NCBI GenBank assembly: GCA_045588915.1
Contig: JAZNFA010000008.1
Location: 139,744-203,743, forward strand
DNA length: 64,000 nucleotides
Direction of reading: 5' to 3'
Source of the DNA: Clostridia bacterium
GTDB lineage: Bacteria > Bacillota > Clostridia > Christensenellales > UBA1242
A program made the translations under genes and the position numbers. Numbering within the stretch: position 1 is the first letter of the stretch; each line of letters begins with the position of its first letter. The notes below the pieces were generated by a model. It did no database searches and had not been told where the DNA came from. It saw only the letters and a list, made by a program, of their open reading frames with translations. Shown piece after piece: positions 4,755 through 59,105 of this stretch.

Positions 4755-4770
4755 TCAAGAAAACACCATA

Positions 4771-4799
4771 AAAAGAGTTGGTCGATGCCAGCTTTTTTT
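4771..4799 (+). terminator. Rho-independent terminator candidate after secG
   Basis: Hairpin AGTTGG-N6-CCAGCT (one G-U pair), flanked by an A-run and followed by T7. Confidence 0.5.
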
Positions 4800-4835
4800 A
4801 TTTGCTTTTTTTTATTTGCTTTTTTTTTTATTTTC
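4800..4835. repeat. Tandem ATTTGC(T)n units containing T8 and T10 homopolymers
   Basis: Read directly: ATTTGC-T8 (4800-4813), ATTTGC-T10 (4814-4829), then ATTTTC. Sits about 66 nt upstream of the ATG at 4895. Confidence 0.9.
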
Positions 4836-4844
4836 ACTCATACT
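4816..4844 (+). promoter_or_regulatory. Candidate promoter TTGCTT-N17-CATACT with the T10 tract inside the spacer
   Basis: Weak hexamers. The position is equivalent to the better-matching promoter candidate upstream of the paralog at 29341. Confidence 0.25.
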
Positions 4845-4845
4845 T

Positions 4846-4950
4846 TAAGTGGTAGTACCACATACTAAAGGTGGAACTATTGTAAGGAGAACAAATGAAT
4901 AATAAATTATTTCGTATTTTAATCTTATTTATTTCAGTTTGCATAGCTTC
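4846..4950 (+). repeat. Conserved 5' cassette (leader, SD and first ~56 nt of CDS), shared with 29290-29396
   Basis: CCACATACTAA...AAGGAGAACAAATGAATAATAAATTATTTCGTATTTTAATCTTATTTATTTC is near-identical at both loci. The first 41 nt of the CDS are identical. Confidence 0.85.
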
Positions 4951-7168
4951 AATATCAACATTGCTAGCATTTAATTTTGGTTTATCAAATTCTGGTTTGA
5001 TGAATAAAAATAGTGATTTAAATAATGAAAAAGAAGATTTATCTAATGAGGCTGATTCACTGAAAGATGTACTAGAGGATTTACAAGATACAATAGTTTT
5101 AAGTCCAAATTTAGCAGTGGTGTCTTATGAAGTGAATGGTGAAATTTGGGACATTAATATGGTGGAAAAGAATAGTCTTATTACACTTCCAACTGGTCCA
5201 AATGTTGGAACCTGTTATTTTAATGGTTGGAAAGTTAATGGTGAAGGTAACACATTAAATAATGTTACCCAAATTACCCAAAATACTAAATTTGTTGCTG
5301 ATATGGTAGAGGCTGATTGGATAGGTGTTGAGCCTTTTAAGTATTTGGCTACTATAAACAGTATCAGTGGTGGTAATATTTGGACGGATGGCACCAACAC
5401 CTATTATTCAGCTGATAACAATCAATATATCTTAAAGGAAAACGACACCTGGGAACCGATAACCTGGAATGGCTGGGGTGAATACGTGTCATTTTATAGT
5501 GATGGTATTTGGACGGATGGCACCAACACATATTATTCGTATGATAACGCCCAATATAAATATATAAAAGCAAACAACATCTGGGAATTGATAACCTGGA
5601 ATGGTTTGTCGCCATATCGTGGTGATTATATTTGGACGGATGGCACCAACACATATTATTCAAGTAGTGGCAGTCAATATATCCTAAAAGCAAACGACAC
5701 CTGGGAACCGATAACCTGGAATGGTTTGACTCCATCTTATGGTAATCGTATTTGGACGGATGGCACCAACACCTATTATTCTTATGGTAGTGATCAATAT
5801 ATCCTAAAAGCAAACAACACCTGGGAACCGATAGCCTGGAATGACTTGACGTCATTTGATGGTCGTTATATTTGGACGGATGGCACCAATACATATTATT
5901 CAAGTGGTAGCAGTCAATATATCTTAAAAGCAAACAACACCTGGGAACCGATGAATTGGTTTACATGGAAACCTTACCATTTTTCTACATCAGGTGGTTT
6001 TGCTCCTGTTCGTGAATTTAATGGCAATTTATATGTAGAAAACTATATTTTGACCGAAAATAATACTTTAGAATCATCTCCTAACAATTTTTCTGTTAAT
6101 TGTGTTTGGACGGATGGCACCAACACCTATTATTCGTGTGGTTACGATCAATATATCTTAAACAAAGAAACCAACACCTGGGAACCGATAACCTGGAATG
6201 GTTTGACGTCAATTGATGTTTATTATATTTGGACGGATGGCACCAACACCTATTATTCGTATGGTGACGAACAATATATCTTAAAAGCAAACAACACCTG
6301 GGAACCGATAACCTGGAATGGTTTGACGTCATTTTATAACAATATTTGGACGGATGGCACCAACACCTATTATTCGTATAATAACGACCAATATATCTTA
6401 AAAGAAAACAACACCTGGAAAAATGTAAGCTGGTCCTATTTTGGAAGTCATACTCTTTACGGTTATGATGTGTGGATGAAAGATGGTTTCGTATATTACT
6501 CATCTGGCAGCAGTCAATATAAGCTGTATGACAAAGAAAAAAGAATTTGGCTTGAAGTAACCTGGAATGGTTTGACGTCGTTTGCTGGTCGTTATATTTG
6601 GACGGATGGCACCAACACCTATTATTCAGCTGATAACAATCAATATATCCTAAAGGAAAACGACACCTGGGAACCGATAACCTGGAATGGTTTGACGTCA
6701 TTTGCTGGTAATTATATTTGGACGGATGGCACCAACACCTATTATTCGTATTATAACAACCAATATATCTTAAAAGCAAACAACACCTGGGAACCAATAA
6801 CCTGGAATGTTTTGAATCCAACTTTAGGTGCTTATATTTGGACGGATGGCACCAACACCTATTATTCGGATTATAACAGTCAATATATCTTAAAAGCAAA
6901 CAACACCTGGGAACCGATAAACTGGAATGGCTTGACGTCATTTTATGGTAATGGTATTTGGACGGATGGCACCAACACCTATTATTCGGATTATAACAGT
7001 CAATATATCTTAAAAGAAAACAACACCTGGTTAGCCAAAGAATTTATTTTCCGTGAATCTGATGGTTCACTAAGAAAAGCAATGGTTTATGGTTCTTGTG
7101 TTTGGTCAGATGGTACAAACTTTTATTATTCGTACGGTAGCGAACAATATGTGTATGTAAAAAAATAA
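4895..7168 (+). CDS. Membrane-anchored surface repeat protein: signal anchor, coiled coil, one Listeria/Bacteroides-type (InlB B-repeat-like) module, then about 15 copies of a 40-aa WTDGTNTYYS repeat
   Basis: SD AAGGAGA 6 nt before the ATG. N-terminal hydrophobic anchor FRILILFISVCIASISTLLAF. Module YEVNGEIW..YFNGWKVNGEG..TKFVADM. 14 clear and 1 degenerate repeat units. Confidence 0.9.
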   Translation: MNNKLFRILILFISVCIASISTLLAFNFGLSNSGLMNKNSDLNNEKEDLSNEADSLKDVLEDLQDTIVLSPNLAVVSYEVNGEIWDINMVEKNSLITLPTGPNVGTCYFNGWKVNGEGNTLNNVTQITQNTKFVADMVEADWIGVEPFKYLATINSISGGNIWTDGTNTYYSADNNQYILKENDTWEPITWNGWGEYVSFYSDGIWTDGTNTYYSYDNAQYKYIKANNIWELITWNGLSPYRGDYIWTDGTNTYYSSSGSQYILKANDTWEPITWNGLTPSYGNRIWTDGTNTYYSYGSDQYILKANNTWEPIAWNDLTSFDGRYIWTDGTNTYYSSGSSQYILKANNTWEPMNWFTWKPYHFSTSGGFAPVREFNGNLYVENYILTENNTLESSPNNFSVNCVWTDGTNTYYSCGYDQYILNKETNTWEPITWNGLTSIDVYYIWTDGTNTYYSYGDEQYILKANNTWEPITWNGLTSFYNNIWTDGTNTYYSYNNDQYILKENNTWKNVSWSYFGSHTLYGYDVWMKDGFVYYSSGSSQYKLYDKEKRIWLEVTWNGLTSFAGRYIWTDGTNTYYSADNNQYILKENDTWEPITWNGLTSFAGNYIWTDGTNTYYSYYNNQYILKANNTWEPITWNVLNPTLGAYIWTDGTNTYYSDYNSQYILKANNTWEPINWNGLTSFYGNGIWTDGTNTYYSDYNSQYILKENNTWLAKEFIFRESDGSLRKAMVYGSCVWSDGTNFYYSYGSEQYVYVKK
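5381..7140 (+). repeat. In-frame tandem DNA repeats, period 117-129 bp
   Basis: TGGACGGATGGCACCAA recurs at 5381, 5510, 5633, 5753, 5873, 6107, 6230, 6347, 6599, 6719, 6839 and 6959. Diverged copies lie near 6470 and 7100. Many units share 30+ identical nt. Confidence 0.95.
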
Positions 7169-7189
7169 CAAACATTAAAAATGTTTTCA

Positions 7190-7218
7190 ACAGTGGCACA
7201 CAAGTCACTGTTTTTTTT
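7190..7218 (+). terminator. Rho-independent terminator after the repeat-protein gene
   Basis: ACAGTG-N10-CACTGT followed by T8. A second small hairpin AAACAT-TAAAA-ATGTTT at 7170-7186 could serve the convergent rnr. Confidence 0.65.
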
Positions 7219-8950: not shown

Positions 8951-9679
8951 ATGTCAAATTTAACAACAAAAACACTTGGTAGTCGATTCTTGGATGCTTA
9001 CAATGCGATCGATAAAGCTTTACGTATTCAATACAACTATAAGACTACGATTTCATTCTCTGACTTGATTCGTCGCTGTGCCGATTTAAACCACGTTGTG
9101 CGTGGTTATGAAAATGATTTAATCAATTTTGCTCGTTTGCGTAATGCAATTGTTCACAGCAGTGATAATAACAGAGTTATTGCTGAGCCACATTTAGATG
9201 TTGTTGAACTTATGGAAAAAATTGCAACTTTAATTACGACACCTCCTTTGGTGGTTGAAGCTTTACGCTTACGTACAGTTGCTATAATTGATGCAACTCG
9301 TAGTCTGTATGACCTTATTAAAGAAACTGGTAAGACTGGGCATGGTATGATTCCTGCATACAAGGGTAATACTTTGGTTGGTATTGTGCGTTGGCGTAAA
9401 TTGATTGAAGATTTGGCTGGTATTTTAGATAAATGCGATTTAGACCAATTTATACGTCAAACTTCGATTGAAGATTATCTTCATATGTATCCACAATCGG
9501 GACATTACACTATTGTTGATAAGAACGTTACAATTGAACAAATTTTAACAATCTTTAATAATAATCGTAAAATTGCTGGTATTTTGATTACTCAAAATGG
9601 AACTGCTATGGAACCACCAGTATGTTTCTTAACCAATGCTGATATTATTGATTTAGTTAAAATCATTGAAACTTATTAA
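8951..9679 (+). CDS. HEPN-like (RNAIVH, Rx4H) N-terminal domain fused to a CBS-domain pair
   Basis: N-terminal helical region ends in FARLRNAIVHS. The C-terminal half has two CBS-like units (..GMIPAYKGNTLVGIVRWRKL.. and ..AGILITQNGTAMEPPVCFLTNADIIDL..). Alternative GTG start at 8936. Confidence 0.6.
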   Translation: MSNLTTKTLGSRFLDAYNAIDKALRIQYNYKTTISFSDLIRRCADLNHVVRGYENDLINFARLRNAIVHSSDNNRVIAEPHLDVVELMEKIATLITTPPLVVEALRLRTVAIIDATRSLYDLIKETGKTGHGMIPAYKGNTLVGIVRWRKLIEDLAGILDKCDLDQFIRQTSIEDYLHMYPQSGHYTIVDKNVTIEQILTIFNNNRKIAGILITQNGTAMEPPVCFLTNADIIDLVKIIETY

Positions 9680-9722
9680 AAATCATGTTAATTTATATTT
9701 GAGATTAAAAGGAATTTTTTTA

Positions 9723-12700
9723 ATGAAAAAAGAAACATCAGTTTTTGATTTTGGCCACAATTACGAACCAGCCGATATTCTCGAAAGAATTAAAAATAAA
9801 AATAAAGGTAAACCAAAATATAACTTTTTGGACGGTCCGATTACGGCTAATGCACCGATGTGTTTGCATCACGGCTGGGGTCGTACTTTAAAGGATGTCT
9901 ATAACCGTTATAATTCTTTAATTGGTAAAGAAGTTGATTACGTGTGGGGTTTTGACGCTCAGGGAATGTGGGTAGAAGTTGAAGTTGAGAAATTACTTGG
10001 CTTGAAAAGTAAAAAAGAGATTGTTGAATATGGTGTTGATAAGTTTACCGAAAAGTGTATTGAACGTGTTGACTTCTTCAAAAATCGTCAAACAGAACAA
10101 AGCAAATTGATGGAAGAATTAGGTGACTGGGAACGTAGTTATATCACTAATTCCGATAAGAACATTACATCAATTTGGCATTTCTTAAAAGTCTGTAACG
10201 ATAAAAAAATGTTAAAACAAAGTTACAAAACAATGCCTTGGTGTCCACGCTGTGGTACCAGTTTAAGTGAACACGAAATGACTGGCAGTTATAAAGAACG
10301 CACACATAAAGCAGTTTATGTAAAGGCCAAAATCATAGGACGTGATGAAAGAATTTTGGTTTGGACAACAACACCGTGGACTTTGGCTGCAAATATGGCG
10401 ATTGCAATTAATCCAGAGTTTACTTATTGCAAATGTCGTGTAAAGAGTGATAGCAACTTGTTAATTGTTTGCGAAAAACGACTTAAAGTTTTACGTGATG
10501 ATTTAATCGAAGTTGTAGAAAAAGTTAATGGTTCTGACCTTGTTGGTTTAACTTATGAACCTTTCTTACCATTAGCGAAACAAGACTTTGAACATAAAAT
10601 TGTACCTTGGGATCAAGTTGATGAAGTCGATGGGTCAGGTGCTGTTCATATTGCTCCTGGTTGTGGTGCAGAAGACTTTGCTTTGGGTACACAATTACAT
10701 TTGGAACCGTTTATTATTCCTGTTGGAGAAAATGGTGTTTTTTATGATGAGTTTGAATGGCTAGCTGGGTTATCAACAGTTGATTGTGAAACAACAGTTT
10801 TTCAAAAATTAACAGATAATCAAACTATATATTATCATCACGATTATACGCATAATTATCCTTTCTGTTGGCGTTGTAAAACTGACGTTATTTTCCGTCT
10901 CGTTGCAGGTTATGATATTGCAACAGATGGTATTCGTAAAGATTTATTAAAGGCAGCTGATACAGTACATTGGACTCCTAGTTTTATGGGAAAATCAATG
11001 CGTCAGTGGTTGACCGATATGGGGGACTGGAATATTAGTCGACGTCGTTTTTATGGGTTACCTTTGCCATTCTATCCTTGTGAAAAATGTGGACATTTAA
11101 ATGTTGTTGATAGTCTTGATGATTTACGTGCTCGTGCTGTCGAGCCTGCTAAGGTTGATGCAATGCCACATTTACATCGTCCATATATTGATGAAATTAA
11201 AATCCACTGCGAAAAATGTAATGAGCACGTTGCACGTGTTCCTGATGTCGGGGATTGCTGGTTAGATGCGGGAATTGCGCCATTTTCAACCAAACCCAAA
11301 GGACAATTTAAAGCCGATATGGTCTTGGAAATGAAAGAACAAATTCGTTTGTGGTTCTATGCTCAATTATTTATGTCGGTGGTTTTAACCGGTGAAGCTC
11401 CTTATAAAGCTGTTGTTGGTTATTCAACACTTGTTGACGAAGATGGTAAAAAGTTCTCAAAGACTGGACCACGTAAAATCTATATTGAAGATGTTGCGGC
11501 ACAATATGGTGTCGATGTCTTACGTTATACTTTTGCAAGCGCTAATCCAACACTTGATATGCGCTTTGGTGATAATATTGCTGAAGATGCAAAACGTCGT
11601 TTATTAGCAATTTGGAATGCTTATGTTTTCTATACTACTTATGCTTTAGTAGACCAACCTGATGTGAAAAATTATCAGCCAGAGAATTTATCACCAATTG
11701 ATTTATGGTTAGTGCAATTAACCAATAAATATATTGAAGCAACACGTGAAGCTTATAATCAATTTAAGACACACCAAGTTGTTAAATTAACTGACGATTT
11801 TATTGAAGATATTTCGAATTTTTATATTCGTGTCAATCGTCGCCGTTATTGGAAAAATGGGGAAGATCAAGACAAGATGAATGCTTATTGGTGTTTGTTT
11901 AATGCTTTGCGTAGTGTTGTTGTTGTTTTAACACCAATCGTACCTAGTTATGCACAATACTTGTGGGAAAATTGTTTTGGGGAAGGTGAAGAACCTGTTA
12001 TGCTGGCAAATTATCCAACAACACTAAAAATAAAAACTAAAGATATGAAAGTCGATTTACTTGAATCGGTTAACTTTGTCAAACAAGTTATTAGTTTAGG
12101 GCTATCTTTGCGCGCTGAGAATCAAATTGCAATTAAGCAACCATTATCCAAGGTTTATATTAAGACTAACCAGCTTGATACTATTACAATGTTTGCAGAT
12201 ATTATTCAAGATCAATTAAACGTTAAACAAATTGAAATTGTTACCGATGACGATAAATTTAATATAGCATATTTAACAGTAAATTTCAAAAAAGCAGGTG
12301 CTATTTTGAAAAATCGTGTTCAAGAATTGAAAAATGCTTTGCAATCGTCAGACAAAATGAACGAGTACGTTGCTGCCTTTGAAACAGGTGAAAAAATTAA
12401 AATTGATGGATTTGATGCTTTAACACCAGACCTTTTTGAACGTAAATTAGCACCACGTGATGGTTTTGTGATAACTACTAGTGAAGATGTTACAGTCGTT
12501 CTTGATACGGTCATTACTGATGATTTAATGTTGGAAGGTATTGCACGTGAATTAATTCGTAGTATTCAATTAGAACGTATGAATCAAAATCTTAACATTA
12601 CTGACCGTATTATTTTAGATTTGAAAACAGCAGATGAAAAAATCTATACTGCTGCAAACGCTCATCAACCACGTATTATGCGTGAAGTATTGGCAACCGA

Positions 12701-12755
12701 AATGCATATCTCACAAGGAAGTGGAGAAAATGAAATACACATCAGATTGGCGTGA
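9723..12755 (+). CDS. ileS: Isoleucine--tRNA ligase (divergent signature motifs)
   Basis: Class I aaRS layout. LGLKSKKEIVEYGVDKFTEKC block, WCPRCGTSLSEHE and PFCWRCKTDVIF zinc-type motifs, KFSKTG in the KMSKS position. The ATG at 9723 avoids overlap with the upstream gene. Confidence 0.85.
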   Translation: MKKETSVFDFGHNYEPADILERIKNKNKGKPKYNFLDGPITANAPMCLHHGWGRTLKDVYNRYNSLIGKEVDYVWGFDAQGMWVEVEVEKLLGLKSKKEIVEYGVDKFTEKCIERVDFFKNRQTEQSKLMEELGDWERSYITNSDKNITSIWHFLKVCNDKKMLKQSYKTMPWCPRCGTSLSEHEMTGSYKERTHKAVYVKAKIIGRDERILVWTTTPWTLAANMAIAINPEFTYCKCRVKSDSNLLIVCEKRLKVLRDDLIEVVEKVNGSDLVGLTYEPFLPLAKQDFEHKIVPWDQVDEVDGSGAVHIAPGCGAEDFALGTQLHLEPFIIPVGENGVFYDEFEWLAGLSTVDCETTVFQKLTDNQTIYYHHDYTHNYPFCWRCKTDVIFRLVAGYDIATDGIRKDLLKAADTVHWTPSFMGKSMRQWLTDMGDWNISRRRFYGLPLPFYPCEKCGHLNVVDSLDDLRARAVEPAKVDAMPHLHRPYIDEIKIHCEKCNEHVARVPDVGDCWLDAGIAPFSTKPKGQFKADMVLEMKEQIRLWFYAQLFMSVVLTGEAPYKAVVGYSTLVDEDGKKFSKTGPRKIYIEDVAAQYGVDVLRYTFASANPTLDMRFGDNIAEDAKRRLLAIWNAYVFYTTYALVDQPDVKNYQPENLSPIDLWLVQLTNKYIEATREAYNQFKTHQVVKLTDDFIEDISNFYIRVNRRRYWKNGEDQDKMNAYWCLFNALRSVVVVLTPIVPSYAQYLWENCFGEGEEPVMLANYPTTLKIKTKDMKVDLLESVNFVKQVISLGLSLRAENQIAIKQPLSKVYIKTNQLDTITMFADIIQDQLNVKQIEIVTDDDKFNIAYLTVNFKKAGAILKNRVQELKNALQSSDKMNEYVAAFETGEKIKIDGFDALTPDLFERKLAPRDGFVITTSEDVTVVLDTVITDDLMLEGIARELIRSIQLERMNQNLNITDRIILDLKTADEKIYTAANAHQPRIMREVLATEMHISQGSGENEIHIRLA

Positions 12756-29259: not shown

Positions 29260-29289
29260 TTGATTTTTTTTTTTTTTTTCTATTATAAG
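29260..29289 (+). promoter_or_regulatory. Candidate promoter TTGATT-(T tract spacer)-TATTAT/TATAAG
   Basis: -35-like TTGATT at 29260-29265. The -10-like hexamers are TATTAT (29281-29286, spacer 15) or TATAAG (29284-29289, spacer 18). The spacer is almost entirely the T16 run. Confidence 0.35.
29264..29279. repeat. Homopolymeric T16 tract
   Basis: Counted directly (7 + 9 T). Lies 62 nt upstream of the ATG at 29341. Confidence 0.97.
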
Positions 29290-29396
29290 TTTAGTAGTAG
29301 TGCCACATACTAATGCTGGGACTATACAAAAGGAGAACAAATGAATAATAAATTATTTCGTATTTTAATCTTATTTATTTCCGTTTGTGTTGCTTC
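29290..29396 (+). repeat. Conserved 5' cassette, second copy (see 4846-4950)
   Basis: Near-identical leader, SD and first ~56 nt of the CDS. Confidence 0.85.
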
Positions 29397-54728: not shown

Positions 54729-56495
54729 ATGCGTAAAATTACATATCACGAATTACGAAAAATGTGGTTTGATTTTTATCAATCACACGAACATCAAATT
54801 ATTCCATCATGGTCGTTAGTCCCCGAAAACGACGGCAGTGTTTTATTTACTACTGCTGGAATGCAACCTTTAGTTCCTTTTTTGTTGGGAGAAAAACACC
54901 CTGCTGGTAATCGTTTATGCGATATCCAAAAATGTGTGAGAACTGGTGACATTGATGAAGTTGGTGACAATAGTCATTTAACCTTTTTTGAAATGATGGG
55001 GAACTGGTCGTTGGGTGATTATTTTAAAAAAGAAAAAGTTGCATGGTCTTATGATTTTTTAACTAATCCAAAGTATTTAGGTTTAGATAAAGAGCGTATT
55101 GCCGTAACAGCCTTCGCTGGGGATGAAGTTGCTCCACGTGATAATGAAGTGGCTGAATATTGGAAACAAGTTGGAATTCCAACCAACCGAATATTCTTTT
55201 TGCCTAAAAGTGAAAATTGGTGGCAGTTAGCTACGGGAACTGGTCCTTGTGGCCCAGATAGCGAAATGTTTTATGACACTGGTAAACAACCATGTTCTCC
55301 TGAATGTAATCCTAGCTGTGACTGTGGTAAGTATGTTGAAATTGGTAATGACGTTTATATGCAATACGTTATTCATCAAAAAGATGGAGAAGCTGTCCCA
55401 GCAAAACAACGTAACGTAGATACAGGAATGGGTTTAGAAAGGTTACTTTGTTTTGTAAATGGCTATCAAACTGTTTATGATAGTGAGTTATTTGCGCCAG
55501 CAATTCAAATTGTAGCTGATGATTGTCAAAAATCATATTTGGAAAATACAAAAGCTTTCCGTGTTCTTGTCGAACATACACGTGCAGCAACAATGATTTT
55601 AAGTGACGGTGTTGTTCCATCAGCAACTGGCCAAGGTTATGTTTTGCGTCGTCTAATTCGTCGTGCTGTTCGTATGGCAAATCAGTTGGGTTGCTCACGT
55701 AATGTTTATGAAAAATTAATTCAATTTTACCGTGAATTCTTTCAAGGTATTTATCAAATTGATGCTAGTGTTACTAAAAATTATTTAGAGGAAGTTGATA
55801 AATTTTCGAAAACCATTGAACAAGGAATTCGTGAGTTTAATAAAATTTTACCGTATTTAAAAGATAAGCAGTTTTCAGGTAAAACAGCATTCCGTCTGTA
55901 TGAAACTTATGGTTTTCCAATTGAATTAACTCAAGAGTTAGCAACGGAAAACGGTTTAACGGTAAATATGGAGGAATTTGAAGCAGCTAAAAATAAGCAT
56001 AGTGAGTTAAGTCATACAGCTTCTGCTGGAACCTTTAAAGGTGGTTTAGCTGATACTAGTGAAGAAACAGCATATTTGCATACAGCTACACATTTATTAT
56101 TAGCTGGATTAAAAAAGCTTTTCGGTAAAGAAACTGTTCAAAAAGGAAGTAATATTACACCTGAACGTTTGCGTTTCGATTTTAATTGTGATCATAAATT
56201 AACACCAGACGAAATTACCTTTTTGGAAAAATTTGTTAACGATGCAATTCAACAAAAAATTCCTGTTACCGTAAAGGAAATGTCAATTGCTGAGGCGCGT
56301 GAAATTGGCGCTGAGGGATCTTTTGCTAATAAATATGGCGAACGGGTTAAAGTTTATACAATAGGCGATGTATCAACTGAAATTTGTGGTGGTCCTCACG
56401 CAAATAATACCTCTGATTTAGTTAGTTTCAAAATTATTAAAGAAGAAAGTAGTAGTGCCGGAATTCGACGTATTAAAGCTGTTATTAAAAAATAA
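54729..56495 (+). CDS. alaS: Alanine--tRNA ligase, compact form (588 aa, no C-Ala domain)
   Basis: FTTAGMQPLVPF, KCVRTGDIDEVGDNSHLTFFEMMGNWS, GPCGPDSEMFYD, DTGMGLERL. Editing motifs HTATHLL and CGGPHANNT are retained. Confidence 0.9.
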   Translation: MRKITYHELRKMWFDFYQSHEHQIIPSWSLVPENDGSVLFTTAGMQPLVPFLLGEKHPAGNRLCDIQKCVRTGDIDEVGDNSHLTFFEMMGNWSLGDYFKKEKVAWSYDFLTNPKYLGLDKERIAVTAFAGDEVAPRDNEVAEYWKQVGIPTNRIFFLPKSENWWQLATGTGPCGPDSEMFYDTGKQPCSPECNPSCDCGKYVEIGNDVYMQYVIHQKDGEAVPAKQRNVDTGMGLERLLCFVNGYQTVYDSELFAPAIQIVADDCQKSYLENTKAFRVLVEHTRAATMILSDGVVPSATGQGYVLRRLIRRAVRMANQLGCSRNVYEKLIQFYREFFQGIYQIDASVTKNYLEEVDKFSKTIEQGIREFNKILPYLKDKQFSGKTAFRLYETYGFPIELTQELATENGLTVNMEEFEAAKNKHSELSHTASAGTFKGGLADTSEETAYLHTATHLLLAGLKKLFGKETVQKGSNITPERLRFDFNCDHKLTPDEITFLEKFVNDAIQQKIPVTVKEMSIAEAREIGAEGSFANKYGERVKVYTIGDVSTEICGGPHANNTSDLVSFKIIKEESSSAGIRRIKAVIKK

Positions 56496-57233: not shown

Positions 57234-59105
57234 ATGGGATTAACAATAACTCAATCTGAGATTGTTAACGCACCTTTAGGTGCAATGTTAGTTACGGCTG
57301 GTGCTGGTTCTGGCAAGACTCGTGTTTTAACTAGTCGACTTTTACACTTGTTAAAAAGTGGTATTCCTGAAAAATCAATTATTGCGTTAACCTTTACTAA
57401 TAAAGCTGGCAATGAAATGCGTGAAAGAGTGGAAAAACTCTTAGGTCGACCATTTAATACTTTTATTGGTACTTTTCATAGTTTTTGTGTTCGTTTGTTA
57501 CGTAAACATAGTGGTAAACCAAACTTTTCAATTTATGCAACTTCTGATACTAATAAGGTTTTAAAAGAAATCATTAAAGATTTATTCCAAGAAGTTGATA
57601 CTGAATTGTATAAGTCTGCTGTTAGTGGTTTATCTAACTGGAAACATCACGGTGTTGTTGAATTTACAAGTTATCACGATGCTTTGATTAAAATCTTTAA
57701 TACATATCGAGAACAGTTACGAAAAAATAATGCTTATGATTTTGACGATTTATTGCTTGAAACATTAGAGTTGTTAAAAACAAACACTGATGTATGTGAT
57801 AAATTGAAGGATTATTTTCAATATATATTGGTTGATGAGTTTCAGGACACAAACGAAATCCAATATGAAATTGTATCTATCTTAGCTCAAAAACACCGTA
57901 ACATAATGGTTGTTGGAGACGAAGATCAGTGTATTTATTCTTGGCGAGGTGCCAGTGTGGAGAATTTAAATCGTTTTCGTGCAGATTTTCCTGACGCACG
58001 TATTTATCGTTTGGAAGAGAATTTTCGAAGTTCTGGCAATATTGTTAAATTAGCTAGTGATTTAGTTGCAAAAAACAGTAACCGTATTGATAAAAAATTG
58101 TTTAGTAATATCAATGATGGACTAATTAATTTTGAGGATTTTTATGACGATAAACAAGAGGCGCAAGGAATTATTAGTCACATTTTAGAAAATCGTCGTA
58201 ATGGTGGTACTTGGTCTGATTCAGCTATTTTAATGCGTATTAACGCATTGTCACGCCGCTTTGAAGAAGTTTTACGAATGTATAATATTCCATATGTTGT
58301 CTGGGGTGGTTTTAAATTTTATGAACGTGCCGAAGTAAAAATAGTTTTAGACTATTTGCGTTTGCTGGTGAATCCAAATGACGAAGTTGCTTTTTTTAAT
58401 GTTATCAATTTTCCTAAAAGAGGTATTGGGGAAGCTTGTCACACAAAGATTAAACAATATGCTCGTGAACATAATTTAACTTCATATCAAATTGTTGAAG
58501 ATATAGAGAATTATGATATCAGTGTACCAACTAAAACAAAAAATGCAATTCGTCAATTTTCAAACATTTTGCGGCAATTACAAGATTTATTGAAACAAGG
58601 TTTGATTCCTTTGGCAAACGAATTAGTAGATGTCACTGGATTGCAAAGTCATTATGAATCAGAAAAGGATGACAGCGAAAGTCGTCTTGAAAATATTTAC
58701 CAATTGTGTGGTTCAATTCGTGAATTTGCTTCGGTTAATCCAACAGCTGATTTAAGTAGCTATTTGCAAAGTGTAACGTTAGCAGGGGGAGAAGATCCAG
58801 ATGCAACCGATCACGTTGTTATTTCTACAATTCATAGTGCTAAAGGTTTGGAATTTAAAAATGTTTATATAGTGGGTATGGAAGATGGCTTGTTTCCTTC
58901 TTACAAATCTCAATATAAAGATGAAATCTTAGAAGAAGAACGTCGTTTACTTTATGTTGCAATTACTCGAGCGATGCGTAACTTGAATATTTCATATTCT
59001 CGTTCGCGTTTTTTGAATGGTGAAATTAGTCGCACGGTTCCTAGTAGCTTTCTTATGGAATTAGGCTACTTTGGTGGATATCGTGAGCGTAGTTTTAATT
59101 GGTAA
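57234..59105 (+). CDS. pcrA: UvrD/PcrA/Rep-family ATP-dependent DNA helicase (short, 623 aa)
   Basis: Walker A AGAGSGKT, DEFQDTN, VGDEDQCIYSWRGA, TIHSAKGLEF, LLYVAITRA. Confidence 0.9.
   Translation: MGLTITQSEIVNAPLGAMLVTAGAGSGKTRVLTSRLLHLLKSGIPEKSIIALTFTNKAGNEMRERVEKLLGRPFNTFIGTFHSFCVRLLRKHSGKPNFSIYATSDTNKVLKEIIKDLFQEVDTELYKSAVSGLSNWKHHGVVEFTSYHDALIKIFNTYREQLRKNNAYDFDDLLLETLELLKTNTDVCDKLKDYFQYILVDEFQDTNEIQYEIVSILAQKHRNIMVVGDEDQCIYSWRGASVENLNRFRADFPDARIYRLEENFRSSGNIVKLASDLVAKNSNRIDKKLFSNINDGLINFEDFYDDKQEAQGIISHILENRRNGGTWSDSAILMRINALSRRFEEVLRMYNIPYVVWGGFKFYERAEVKIVLDYLRLLVNPNDEVAFFNVINFPKRGIGEACHTKIKQYAREHNLTSYQIVEDIENYDISVPTKTKNAIRQFSNILRQLQDLLKQGLIPLANELVDVTGLQSHYESEKDDSESRLENIYQLCGSIREFASVNPTADLSSYLQSVTLAGGEDPDATDHVVISTIHSAKGLEFKNVYIVGMEDGLFPSYKSQYKDEILEEERRLLYVAITRAMRNLNISYSRSRFLNGEISRTVPSSFLMELGYFGGYRERSFNW

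Follow-up and report, generated by a model that had tools for sequence, protein, structure and literature searches.

A 64,000-nucleotide stretch of a Clostridia bacterium genome (assembly GCA_045588915.1, contig JAZNFA010000008.1, positions 139,744 to 203,743; hereafter the window) contains a gene, REP1, whose product consists largely of tandem repeats. We favour, with moderate confidence, the interpretation that REP1 is a surface binding protein, variable in both phase and sequence, whose head is a propeller of the type that phages use for receptor binding. A first-pass annotation of the window had recognized the repeats and proposed that they are propeller blades. It did not contain a second paralog in the window, the hypervariable loops of the repeat, a poly-T promoter or a connection to phages, all four of which were found here.

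The REP1 open reading frame (ORF) proved to be as first annotated (Table 1). A six-frame motif search found WTDGTNTYYS exactly 12 times and WSDGTNFYYS once, all in the frame of REP1. A diverged unit (VWMKDGFVYYS, at W527; unit J) and a degenerate unit (at about residues 366-403, REFNGNLYVENYILTENN; unit F) make 15 units of about 40 residues in all, in agreement with the 14 clear and one degenerate units of the first count. Tandem Repeats Finder scored the array at a period of 120 nt (12.8 copies, 71% matches, score 1081) and also at a period of 240 nt (score 1299), far beyond chance. The order that had been read from the sequence, a signal anchor, a short coiled coil, one module of the Listeria-Bacteroides type and then the 15 units, is borne out by hydrophobicity, leucine heptads, the score of the Pfam model Flg_new (PF09479) and the helices in an AlphaFold2 (AF2) model. 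The only strongly hydrophobic segment on the Kyte-Doolittle scale is residues 8-26. No canonical lipobox was found in this anchor, as the sequence I-S-V-C has valine at position -1, and the cysteine is missing from a paralog, L001 (FISVVVAS). Residues 76-135 scored 23 bits with Flg_new, under the Pfam cut-off of 27 bits, whereas relatives of REP1 pass the cut-off at the equivalent position (E 3.5e-17 in P0015), and we therefore call the module Flg_new-like.

The repeat could be assigned to no named family, as had been suspected from the sequence. Searches of Pfam, NCBIfam, PHROGs and PDB sequences with whole REP1, with fragments and with relatives returned no matching family; low-scoring matches to LptD_N, NYN and Cuticle_1 were judged to be spurious. 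None of the WD40, Kelch, RCC1, FG-GAP, YVTN, WG and Reg_prop models matched REP1, whether the whole protein was searched (E≤1) or fragments of it (E≤10), in line with the first-pass exclusion of the first six. Among the relatives, one A1 member matched Kelch_4 (E 2.4e-6), and P0062 has Kelch repeats in a separate C-terminal region (residues 898-1179). A word-indexed search found at least 689 homologues of the repeat, none of them named. A search of 1.84 billion proteins returned 1,407 representatives of 50%-identity clusters at E≤1e-3 and 962 at E≤1e-30; with 1,243 of the 1,407 below 1e-10, the family is sharply bounded. A look-up in NCBI clusters returned no names, and literature searches yielded nothing but the wtdbg assembler for the repeat motif and nothing for DUF5050. 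The consensus of the family is IWTDGxNIYYSxxxxQYVLxKxTxTWxxKTWxGLTxFxGxx.

The sole remote link in sequence was between the family profile and the designed NHL-type propeller Pizza6-SFW (PDB 6f0t), with an E value of 1.6e-4. NHL propellers, including the sensor domain of PknD and Pizza, share with the REP1 family units of about 40-42 residues, a six-blade module and the register GL..(P/F).G.(a/i)(v/W).D..G.(v/i)Y(v/y), but hhalign of the family against NHL/Pizza gave E 0.064 and a probability of 0.9%, Pfam NHL matched neither REP1 nor 30 aligned relatives, and the REP1 family has the sharp boundary described above. DUF5050 (PF16472) did not match REP1, and two relatives reached 23.3-23.6 bits, below its 27-bit cut-off. 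We considered the links to NHL/Pizza and to DUF5050 too weak to claim kinship. Species-representative genomes held 76 family loci, with several paralogs per genome. Nearly all of the hosts are uncultured gut Clostridia, Christensenellales or Caccovivens metagenome-assembled genomes (MAGs) from herbivores, rabbits and chickens, and a few are Prevotella or Bacteroidales and Gastranaerophilales. A metagenome scan with the REP1 protein found no close relative.

Structure prediction supported the proposal of four-stranded propeller blades. An AF2 model of full-length REP1, built from a 31-sequence alignment, has four beta strands in each 40-residue unit, with a predicted local distance difference test score (pLDDT) above 90 over most of residues 200-360 and 400-700 and low confidence in the degenerate unit (361-396) and the C-terminal junction (710-757). 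Every Foldseek match of this model in the PDB was a propeller, and the best were tandem double propellers, headed by BT4663 (E 1.5e-13) and followed by PorZ and DDB1; the Foldseek viral library returned generic propellers only. BT4663 (PDB 4a2l), a periplasmic sensor from the hybrid two-component systems of Bacteroides, and PorZ (5m11), like REP1, have tandem propellers and stand at the bacterial surface or in the periplasm, and these two bind glycans. They differ from REP1 in that their propellers are seven-bladed and made of Reg_prop repeats, identity to REP1 is 9-12% with template-modelling (TM) scores of 0.24-0.37, and their downstream signalling or secretion domains are absent from REP1. 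A second AF2 model, of residues 397-757, had a mean pLDDT of 87 and a predicted TM score (pTM) of 0.64, compared with 0.43 for the full-length model. The best Foldseek TM scores for this part were 0.38 when normalized to the query and 0.47 when normalized to the target, and no propeller in the PDB superposes well.

Blades were counted across the family with a unit hidden Markov model iterated on 251 family proteins. The number of units per protein peaks at 6 (102 proteins) and 12 (48 proteins), with further peaks at 18 and 24, which points to a six-bladed ring as the basic module. An N-terminal strand probably closes this ring: in 100 of the 251 proteins the sequence stops directly after strand 3 of the last unit, and in REP1 a strand that resembles the fourth strand of a blade would probably close a ring with the truncated last unit in a 'velcro' arrangement. 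REP1, with 15 units, is unusual; 12 are present in the syntenic ortholog of a sister species. The proposal that two rings are split at the degenerate unit is plausible, given the six-blade module, the position of unit F as the sixth unit and the 12 units of the ortholog, but the pTM values fall short of demonstrating it. The 15 predicted blades may be partitioned as 7+8, as 6+9 or in other ways.

Divergence between strains is confined to defined positions in the blades. We compared REP1 with its counterpart in the MAG JAZSAE01 ('Clostridia bacterium', L009/L144), which belongs to the same species (amino-acid identity 99.3% for rnr, 100% for the CBS-domain protein and 96.8% for ileS). The C-terminal 323 residues of the two REP1 proteins are 79% identical, and all 68 differences lie in the segments YYS-xxxx-QY and LTSF-x-G-x-Y-IW of each unit, together with the junction between units N and O. 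Nei-Gojobori counts for this allele pair gave dN 0.59 and dS 0.24 in the loops, as against dN 0.033 and dS 0.147 in the framework (dN/dS 0.22); the neighbouring genes gave dN 0.004 and dS 0.085 (rnr), dN 0.002 and dS 0.092 (CBS) and dN 0.016 and dS 0.288 (ileS). Fisher tests separated loops from framework (p = 4e-6) and non-synonymous from synonymous sites within the loops (p = 0.017). The same pattern is seen among the units of REP1 itself, with pN/pS of 3.3 in loops and 0.33 in the framework; eight in-register units have identical codons at most framework positions and different codons in the loops. A third allele (L145) again differs in loops only, including a four-residue insertion. In the second paralog of the window, REP2, 31 of 333 residues differ from an allele in a giraffe sample, clustered in the loops and in the juxtamembrane residues 33-43, with ftsZ 99.7% identical.

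The variable sites correspond to the hairpin between strands 2 and 3 (YYS-xxxx-QY) and to the connection from strand 4 to strand 1 of the next blade (LTSF-x-G-x-Y). Strands 1-4 of a propeller blade form an up-down meander, and one face of a propeller is the usual ligand-binding face. In such a meander a single face of the ring carries both the 2-3 loop and the 4-to-1′ loop, and the variable residues thus tile one propeller face. The loops differ from blade to blade and also among paralogs and strains, on a scaffold that is almost unchanged even in DNA. We read the loop variation as diversifying selection on a putative ligand-binding face. Against L009, the dS of ileS (9666-12755) is 0.29, compared with 0.085-0.092 in the adjacent rnr and CBS genes; this roughly threefold difference suggests a recombination tract there.

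Loop-restricted variation of this kind could also be the work of a diversity-generating retroelement (DGR), in which adenine-specific mutagenic retrohoming from a template repeat would produce the NNT/NNC codons of the loops. The loop codons do vary at positions 1 and 2 and keep position 3, and one relative has an Mtd_N domain. However, NNT codons are those that the genome prefers (GGT 60%, CGT 75%, AAT 70%, TAT 80%), and framework AAT, AAC and AAA codons beside the loops are invariant in eight of eight units. The window holds no copy of a unit outside REP1 and REP2 and no YxDD motif in ORFs of at least 200 residues, and no DGR-type reverse transcriptase motif was found in 147 loci spanning 1.8 Mb. 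On these grounds, with the search for a reverse transcriptase and template covering the window and, for the reverse transcriptase, those loci, we rejected DGR-driven diversification of REP1, which we regard as hardly credible.

Unit number varies as well. The longest exact repeat within REP1 is 62 nt, and the frameworks of its units are 80-97% identical in DNA. REP1 has three units more than its syntenic ortholog. REP2 is intact and multi-bladed in the window and in the giraffe sample, but in two strains an in-frame fusion joins unit 1 to unit 6 with the loss of 625 nt: in ERZ1767626 the locus is a 178-residue allele with this in-frame deletion, and in JAZSAE01 the same deletion is accompanied by a frameshift and a stop codon. 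The REP2 polymorphisms lie at L148:3012-3548, at about 5830-6930 in L149/L076 and at L158:1-999 on the minus strand. These diversity data fit a combination of point substitution under diversifying selection and intragenic recombination. Chimaeras of collapsed or mis-joined repeats might in principle account for the 15-unit array or for the differences between alleles, and contigs of four other assemblies do end in or at the gene, whose unit frameworks are so similar in DNA. We nevertheless consider an assembly artefact very improbable, as ordinary reads exceed the longest exact repeat in length, all 757 codons stand in one intact frame, two strains are colinear at unit J and at the N-to-O junction, and the loop sequences, which differ in every allele, could not be created by misassembly.

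REP1 belongs to a chromosomal paralog family of at least five genes. REP2 has the N-terminal part of REP1, with leader, transmembrane anchor, zipper and Flg_new-like module, and JAZSAE01 has further paralogs with 17 (L001), 12 (L012) and 6 (L022) blades, all with the transmembrane, zipper, Flg_new-like and propeller regions. The paralogs share a 5′ block consisting of a T tract, a -10-like box, a leader hairpin, an AAGGAG ribosome-binding site (RBS) and the ATG, extending in most of them over roughly the first 30 codons. Upstream of REP2, L001, L012, L022 and L002 lies the element TTGA-T(n)-CTATTATAAG, with n of 18 in L001 and L022, 16 in REP2 and L002, and 10 in L012; that of REP1 has diverged (TTGC-T10-A-T4 ... 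CATACT). Four strains with otherwise near-identical flanks have n of 16, 14, 9 and 8 at the REP2 locus, and the short tracts (T9 and T8) go with the deleted REP2 alleles. The T16 tract of REP2 is the sole homopolymer of at least 12 bases in the window. With TTGATT taken as the -35 box and TATTAT as the -10 box, a tract of n gives a spacer of n-1. A direct repeat, ATTTGCTTTTTTTT, occurs twice at 4800-4827, between the secG terminator and the start of REP1, so that the T tract of REP1 is an interrupted, duplicated form of the paralog element. The leader hairpin has nine pairs, two of them with compensatory CG-to-UA changes, and a loop, ACAUACUAA, that is invariant in all chromosomal paralogs. 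It matched no Rfam family and may be a 5′ stabilizer of the mRNA or a regulator binding site.

The length of a homopolymer in the -35/-10 spacer switches the mycoplasma genes vlp, maa2 and vmm (PMC2268961). Since the tract length of the paralogs differs between strains, their expression is probably phase-variable, and we regard the poly-T element as a strong candidate for phase variation, rather than a demonstration of it. Vlp-type families (vlp of M. hyorhinis, maa2, vmm) resemble the REP paralogs in being multigene, in having a conserved 5′ block over promoter, leader and signal or anchor, in the strain-variable homopolymer between -35 and -10 (PMC2268961) and in tandem coding repeats that change in number. 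They differ in that Vlps are lipoproteins with short unstructured repeats, whereas the REP paralogs have folded blades, a transmembrane anchor and no lipobox. The REP proteins vary both in unit number and in defined loops, their host is a Clostridia member with a wall (it has PBP1A) rather than a mollicute, and switching is predicted from sequence.

Relatives of REP1 occur in phages and in prophage-like cassettes. IMG/VR contained 67 loci with relatives, and in all five of the viral loci examined (L077, L078, L100, L103 and L113) the propeller gene closes the tail module and precedes the holin. The order in L078 is tape measure, minor tail protein, four tandem six-blade genes and holin; in L077 the holin is next to the propeller gene, and in L100, L103 and L113 the neighbours are tail or tail-fibre genes. 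The L103 protein has a collagen-like tail-fibre N terminus fused to the propeller, and P0036 and P0101 carry Phage_fiber_rpt and Mtd_N domains. The four tandem propeller genes of L078 (7061-10796), each of about 300 residues, may be a multi-specificity receptor-binding set. The module was not found by tblastn in 50,697 deposited phage genomes and belongs to no PHROG family.

Clustering of flanking ORFs showed that 31 of the 76 genome loci share a cassette in which n118, n389, n209 and the propeller protein are followed by a Zot-like ATPase, and then by a rolling-circle Rep or other small genes (n101, n224), sometimes with an integrase and a helix-turn-helix protein. The cassette loci include L004, L005, L008, L013, L017-L019, L021 and 23 others, from gut Clostridia and also from MAGs labelled Prevotella. 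The match to Zot is a weak one (19.5 bits in Pfam, where the cut-off is 20.3; phrog_197 E 1.2e-8), and n389 and n209 matched nothing in Pfam or PHROGs. The propeller protein occupies the position that pIII or OrfU has in known filamentous phages. From its gene content, the cassette probably represents a group of undescribed inovirus-like prophages, a pI/Zot-like ATPase being the marker used for inoviruses by Roux et al. (PMC6813254). With the propeller module making up both the distal part of tail fibres in uncultivated tailed phages and a large, membrane-anchored protein just upstream of a Zot-like ATPase, we infer that it is a receptor-binding head.

REP1 and REP2 themselves are placed differently. 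Neither lies upstream of a pI/Zot ATPase, where the 31 cassette relatives lie, and REP1 stands between secG and rnr rather than at the end of a tail module, the place of its relatives in L077, L078, L100, L103 and L113. The window contains neither the cassette nor any other phage gene near REP1 or REP2. A T run of at least nine was found upstream of none of 64 viral genes and none of 30 cassette genes. REP1 relatives hold the gene positions of pIII of Ff, OrfU of CTXphi and the receptor-binding proteins of tailed phages, but REP1 differs from phage adsorption proteins in being chromosomal, in having no phage genes nearby and in its N-terminal anchor, that of pIII being C-terminal. An N-terminal transmembrane segment is present in 30 of the 31 cassette proteins, as in REP1 and REP2, and in none of 66 tailed-phage proteins.

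The kinship with the cassettes raises the prospect that REP1 and REP2 are domesticated adsorption proteins of inovirus-like or tailed phages that act as anti-phage decoys or in superinfection exclusion: once displayed, they would mask the cell's own receptor or the incoming phage and block infection, and their loops would track the phages. Filamentous-phage pIII expressed by a host confers superinfection resistance. The layout of N-terminal transmembrane segment, coiled coil, Flg_new and propeller recurs in the proteins that the 31 cassettes encode just before their Zot-like ATPase, and cassette proteins align to the N termini of REP1 and REP2; the family is mostly phage-borne, and fast evolution of the loops fits an arms race. 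Yet no phage gene lies near REP1 or REP2 in the 64 kb, the position is conserved in the sister species, and at least five paralogs with switchable promoters suggest a contingency family owned by the cell and not a single exclusion gene. We therefore consider the decoy account rather unlikely; it is compatible with the variable surface binding protein that we favour, as the binding mechanism is the same and the beneficiary different.

REP1 could instead be an antigen with no specific ligand, a dominant surface shield or spacer whose loops vary only to evade immunoglobulin A or phages that use it as a receptor. The hallmarks shared with Vlps, namely a multigene family, a 5′ block with a homopolymer, variation in repeat number and loop-restricted change, are what such an antigen would display. 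A shield, however, needs no folded propeller with a strictly conserved scaffold, and the same module is found at phage tail tips, where binding is the function. We consider this explanation improbable.

REP1 lies among rpoC, secG (a weak Pfam match), the RNase R gene rnr and a gene for a CBS-domain protein. Because terminator-like hairpins flank it on both sides, REP1 is a monocistronic transcription unit, and no operon partner was found for REP1 or REP2. The first-pass description of the gene as an island holds in the sense that it stands alone between these hairpins, but the corresponding place beside rnr is taken by a repeat gene in a sister species as well (L016, a water-deer MAG), in which the neighbours are about 90% identical and the repeat gene only 44% identical, so REP1 is not a recent insertion. 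Seventy nucleotides upstream of the shared rnr-side terminator in a giraffe co-assembly (L146:1-99) are unlike the 3′ end of REP1; this strain may carry a different gene or allele beside rnr, and the contig ends early. Further alleles were reached through CBS from an internal ATG and through rplT, and exact look-ups of secG (three alternative starts) and CBS (GTG start) gave no further ones; the region upstream of REP1 itself yielded no second allele.

Two antisense ORFs inside REP1 (5364-5933, minus strand, 189 residues; 6096-6941, minus strand, 281 residues), with a repeating 'CWCHPSKY', are a by-product of the codon composition of the repeat and not genes. The scaffold of REP1 is written with codons that are rare in the genome (ACG 11%, ACC 17%, GGC 13%, TCG 8%) and its loops with preferred NNT codons; the unit that was amplified may therefore have come from outside, from a phage. 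The window encodes PBP1A, MutS and MutL, and the host is therefore walled and proficient in mismatch repair. A short alanine-tRNA ligase (54729-56495, 588 residues, PRK01584 type) and a short PcrA (57234-59105, 623 residues) are consistent with a streamlined genome.

Table 1. Features of the REP1 and REP2 loci, in positions of the window
Feature	Position	Strand	Remarks
REP1 coding sequence	4895..7168	+	ATG start, 757 residues, reading frame intact
RBS AAGGAG	4884..4889	+	5 nt upstream of the REP1 ATG
Terminator-like hairpin 3′ of secG	4768..4801	+	15-pair stem, then T-rich run; upstream boundary of the REP1 unit
Candidate REP1 promoter TTGCTT-N17-CATACT	4816..4844	+	Predicted from sequence; spacer holds T10 at 4820-4829 (T10-A-T4)
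5′-leader hairpin GTAGTACCAC-loop ATACTAAAG-GTGGAACTAT	4852..4880	+	Common to paralogs; REP2 counterpart at 29293-29325
N-terminal transmembrane anchor, residues 8-26 (ILILFISVCIASISTLLAF)	4916..4972	+	Mean Kyte-Doolittle 2.66; AF2 helix 3-32
Leucine-zipper coiled coil, residues 35-67	4997..5095	+	Leu 35, 42, 49, 56, 63; AF2 helix 39-66
Flg_new-like (Listeria-Bacteroides repeat) module, residues 76-135	5120..5299	+	PF09479 E 9e-5, 23 bits
N-terminal strand EADWIGVEP	5309..5335	+	Sequence like the fourth strand of a blade; placed by sequence register
Units A-E, residues 162-365	5378..5989	+	AF2: four strands each
Degenerate unit F, residues 366-403	5990..6103	+	Sixth unit, likely ring boundary; pLDDT below 50
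Units G-I, residues 404-525	6104..6469	+	
Diverged unit J (VWMKDGFVYYS), residues 526-567	6470..6595	+	Same divergence kept in other strain
Units K-N, residues 568-735	6596..7099	+	Unit K 97% DNA identity to unit A
Truncated last unit O, residues 736-757	7100..7165	+	Strands 1-3 only
Terminator-like hairpin and T run	7189..7212	+	Between convergent REP1 and rnr; kept in three other strains
REP2 promoter element TTGA-T16-CTATTATAAG	29260..29289	+	T16 at 29264-29279
REP2, second paralog, 398 residues	29341..30537	+	Between rpsO and infC; six diverged units

Taken as a variable surface binding protein, REP1 would be anchored by its transmembrane helix in the membrane of walled, small-genome gut Clostridia. 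The leucine zipper of four to five heptads would probably oligomerize the protein, and the Flg_new-like module would be a spacer below a 15-blade, multi-ring head, which would bind a polymorphic extracellular ligand through its variable propeller face. Blades would be duplicated, deleted and homogenized by intragenic recombination, and slipped-strand mispairing at the poly-T spacer would switch expression of the paralogs stochastically, as in the vlp genes of Mycoplasma. By analogy to the receptor-binding proteins of phages and to UmbA and other propeller lectins, the ligand may be a glycan. In the umbrella toxins of Streptomyces, UmbA propeller lectins with conserved blade cores are the specificity determinants for hypervariable surface glycans (PMC13274773). 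UmbA uses, and the REP1 family would use, diversified propeller domains with conserved blade cores as specificity modules; they differ in that there is no sequence relationship, and in that each UmbA propeller is a lone secreted domain carried by a toxin particle, in contrast to 6-24 blades on a membrane stalk or phage fibre.

Several observations weigh against parts of this interpretation. The 15 blades of REP1 do not fit the six-blade module, and the models of them reach pTM values of only 0.43 and 0.64 and TM scores of at most 0.47. The loop dN/dS comes from simple counts on 69 codons under a model that recombination between blades violates. The alleles compared are short-read MAG or metagenome contigs that break in or at the repeat gene, which leaves blade orthology and homopolymer lengths open to assembly or sequencing error. 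The promoter was recognized from its hexamers only and was not listed by a generic scan, an overlapping second -10-like hexamer, TATAAG, makes the on-lengths uncertain, and the interrupted tract of REP1 itself (T10-A-T4) may be locked. A comparable T tract upstream of the -10 box in M. agalactiae plays no switching role (PMC2268961).

We also entertain, more tentatively and with some doubt, a broader version in which the paralogs form a contingency system: at least five chromosomal propeller genes with slipped-strand-switchable promoters and recombining blades would display up to 30 variable loops per protein on one face, in the manner of antibodies, and would be used as programmable adhesins or as decoys against those phages that have the module themselves. 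If REP1 is a variable surface binding protein, the breaks of these genome assemblies at the repeat loci would be explained, a sizeable family (about 1,400 clusters at 50% identity) would stand outside all domain databases, and rumen and hindgut phages, both tailed and filamentous-like, would share a common receptor-binding head with their Clostridia hosts. The scaffold would be a folded one whose variable positions can be read straight from sequence, which would serve to predict phage-host specificity in uncultured gut communities and as a marker of strain-level arms races in metagenomes, and it may be of use as an engineerable binding scaffold. Phase and size variation in the style of Mycoplasma would then extend to a walled gut Firmicute.

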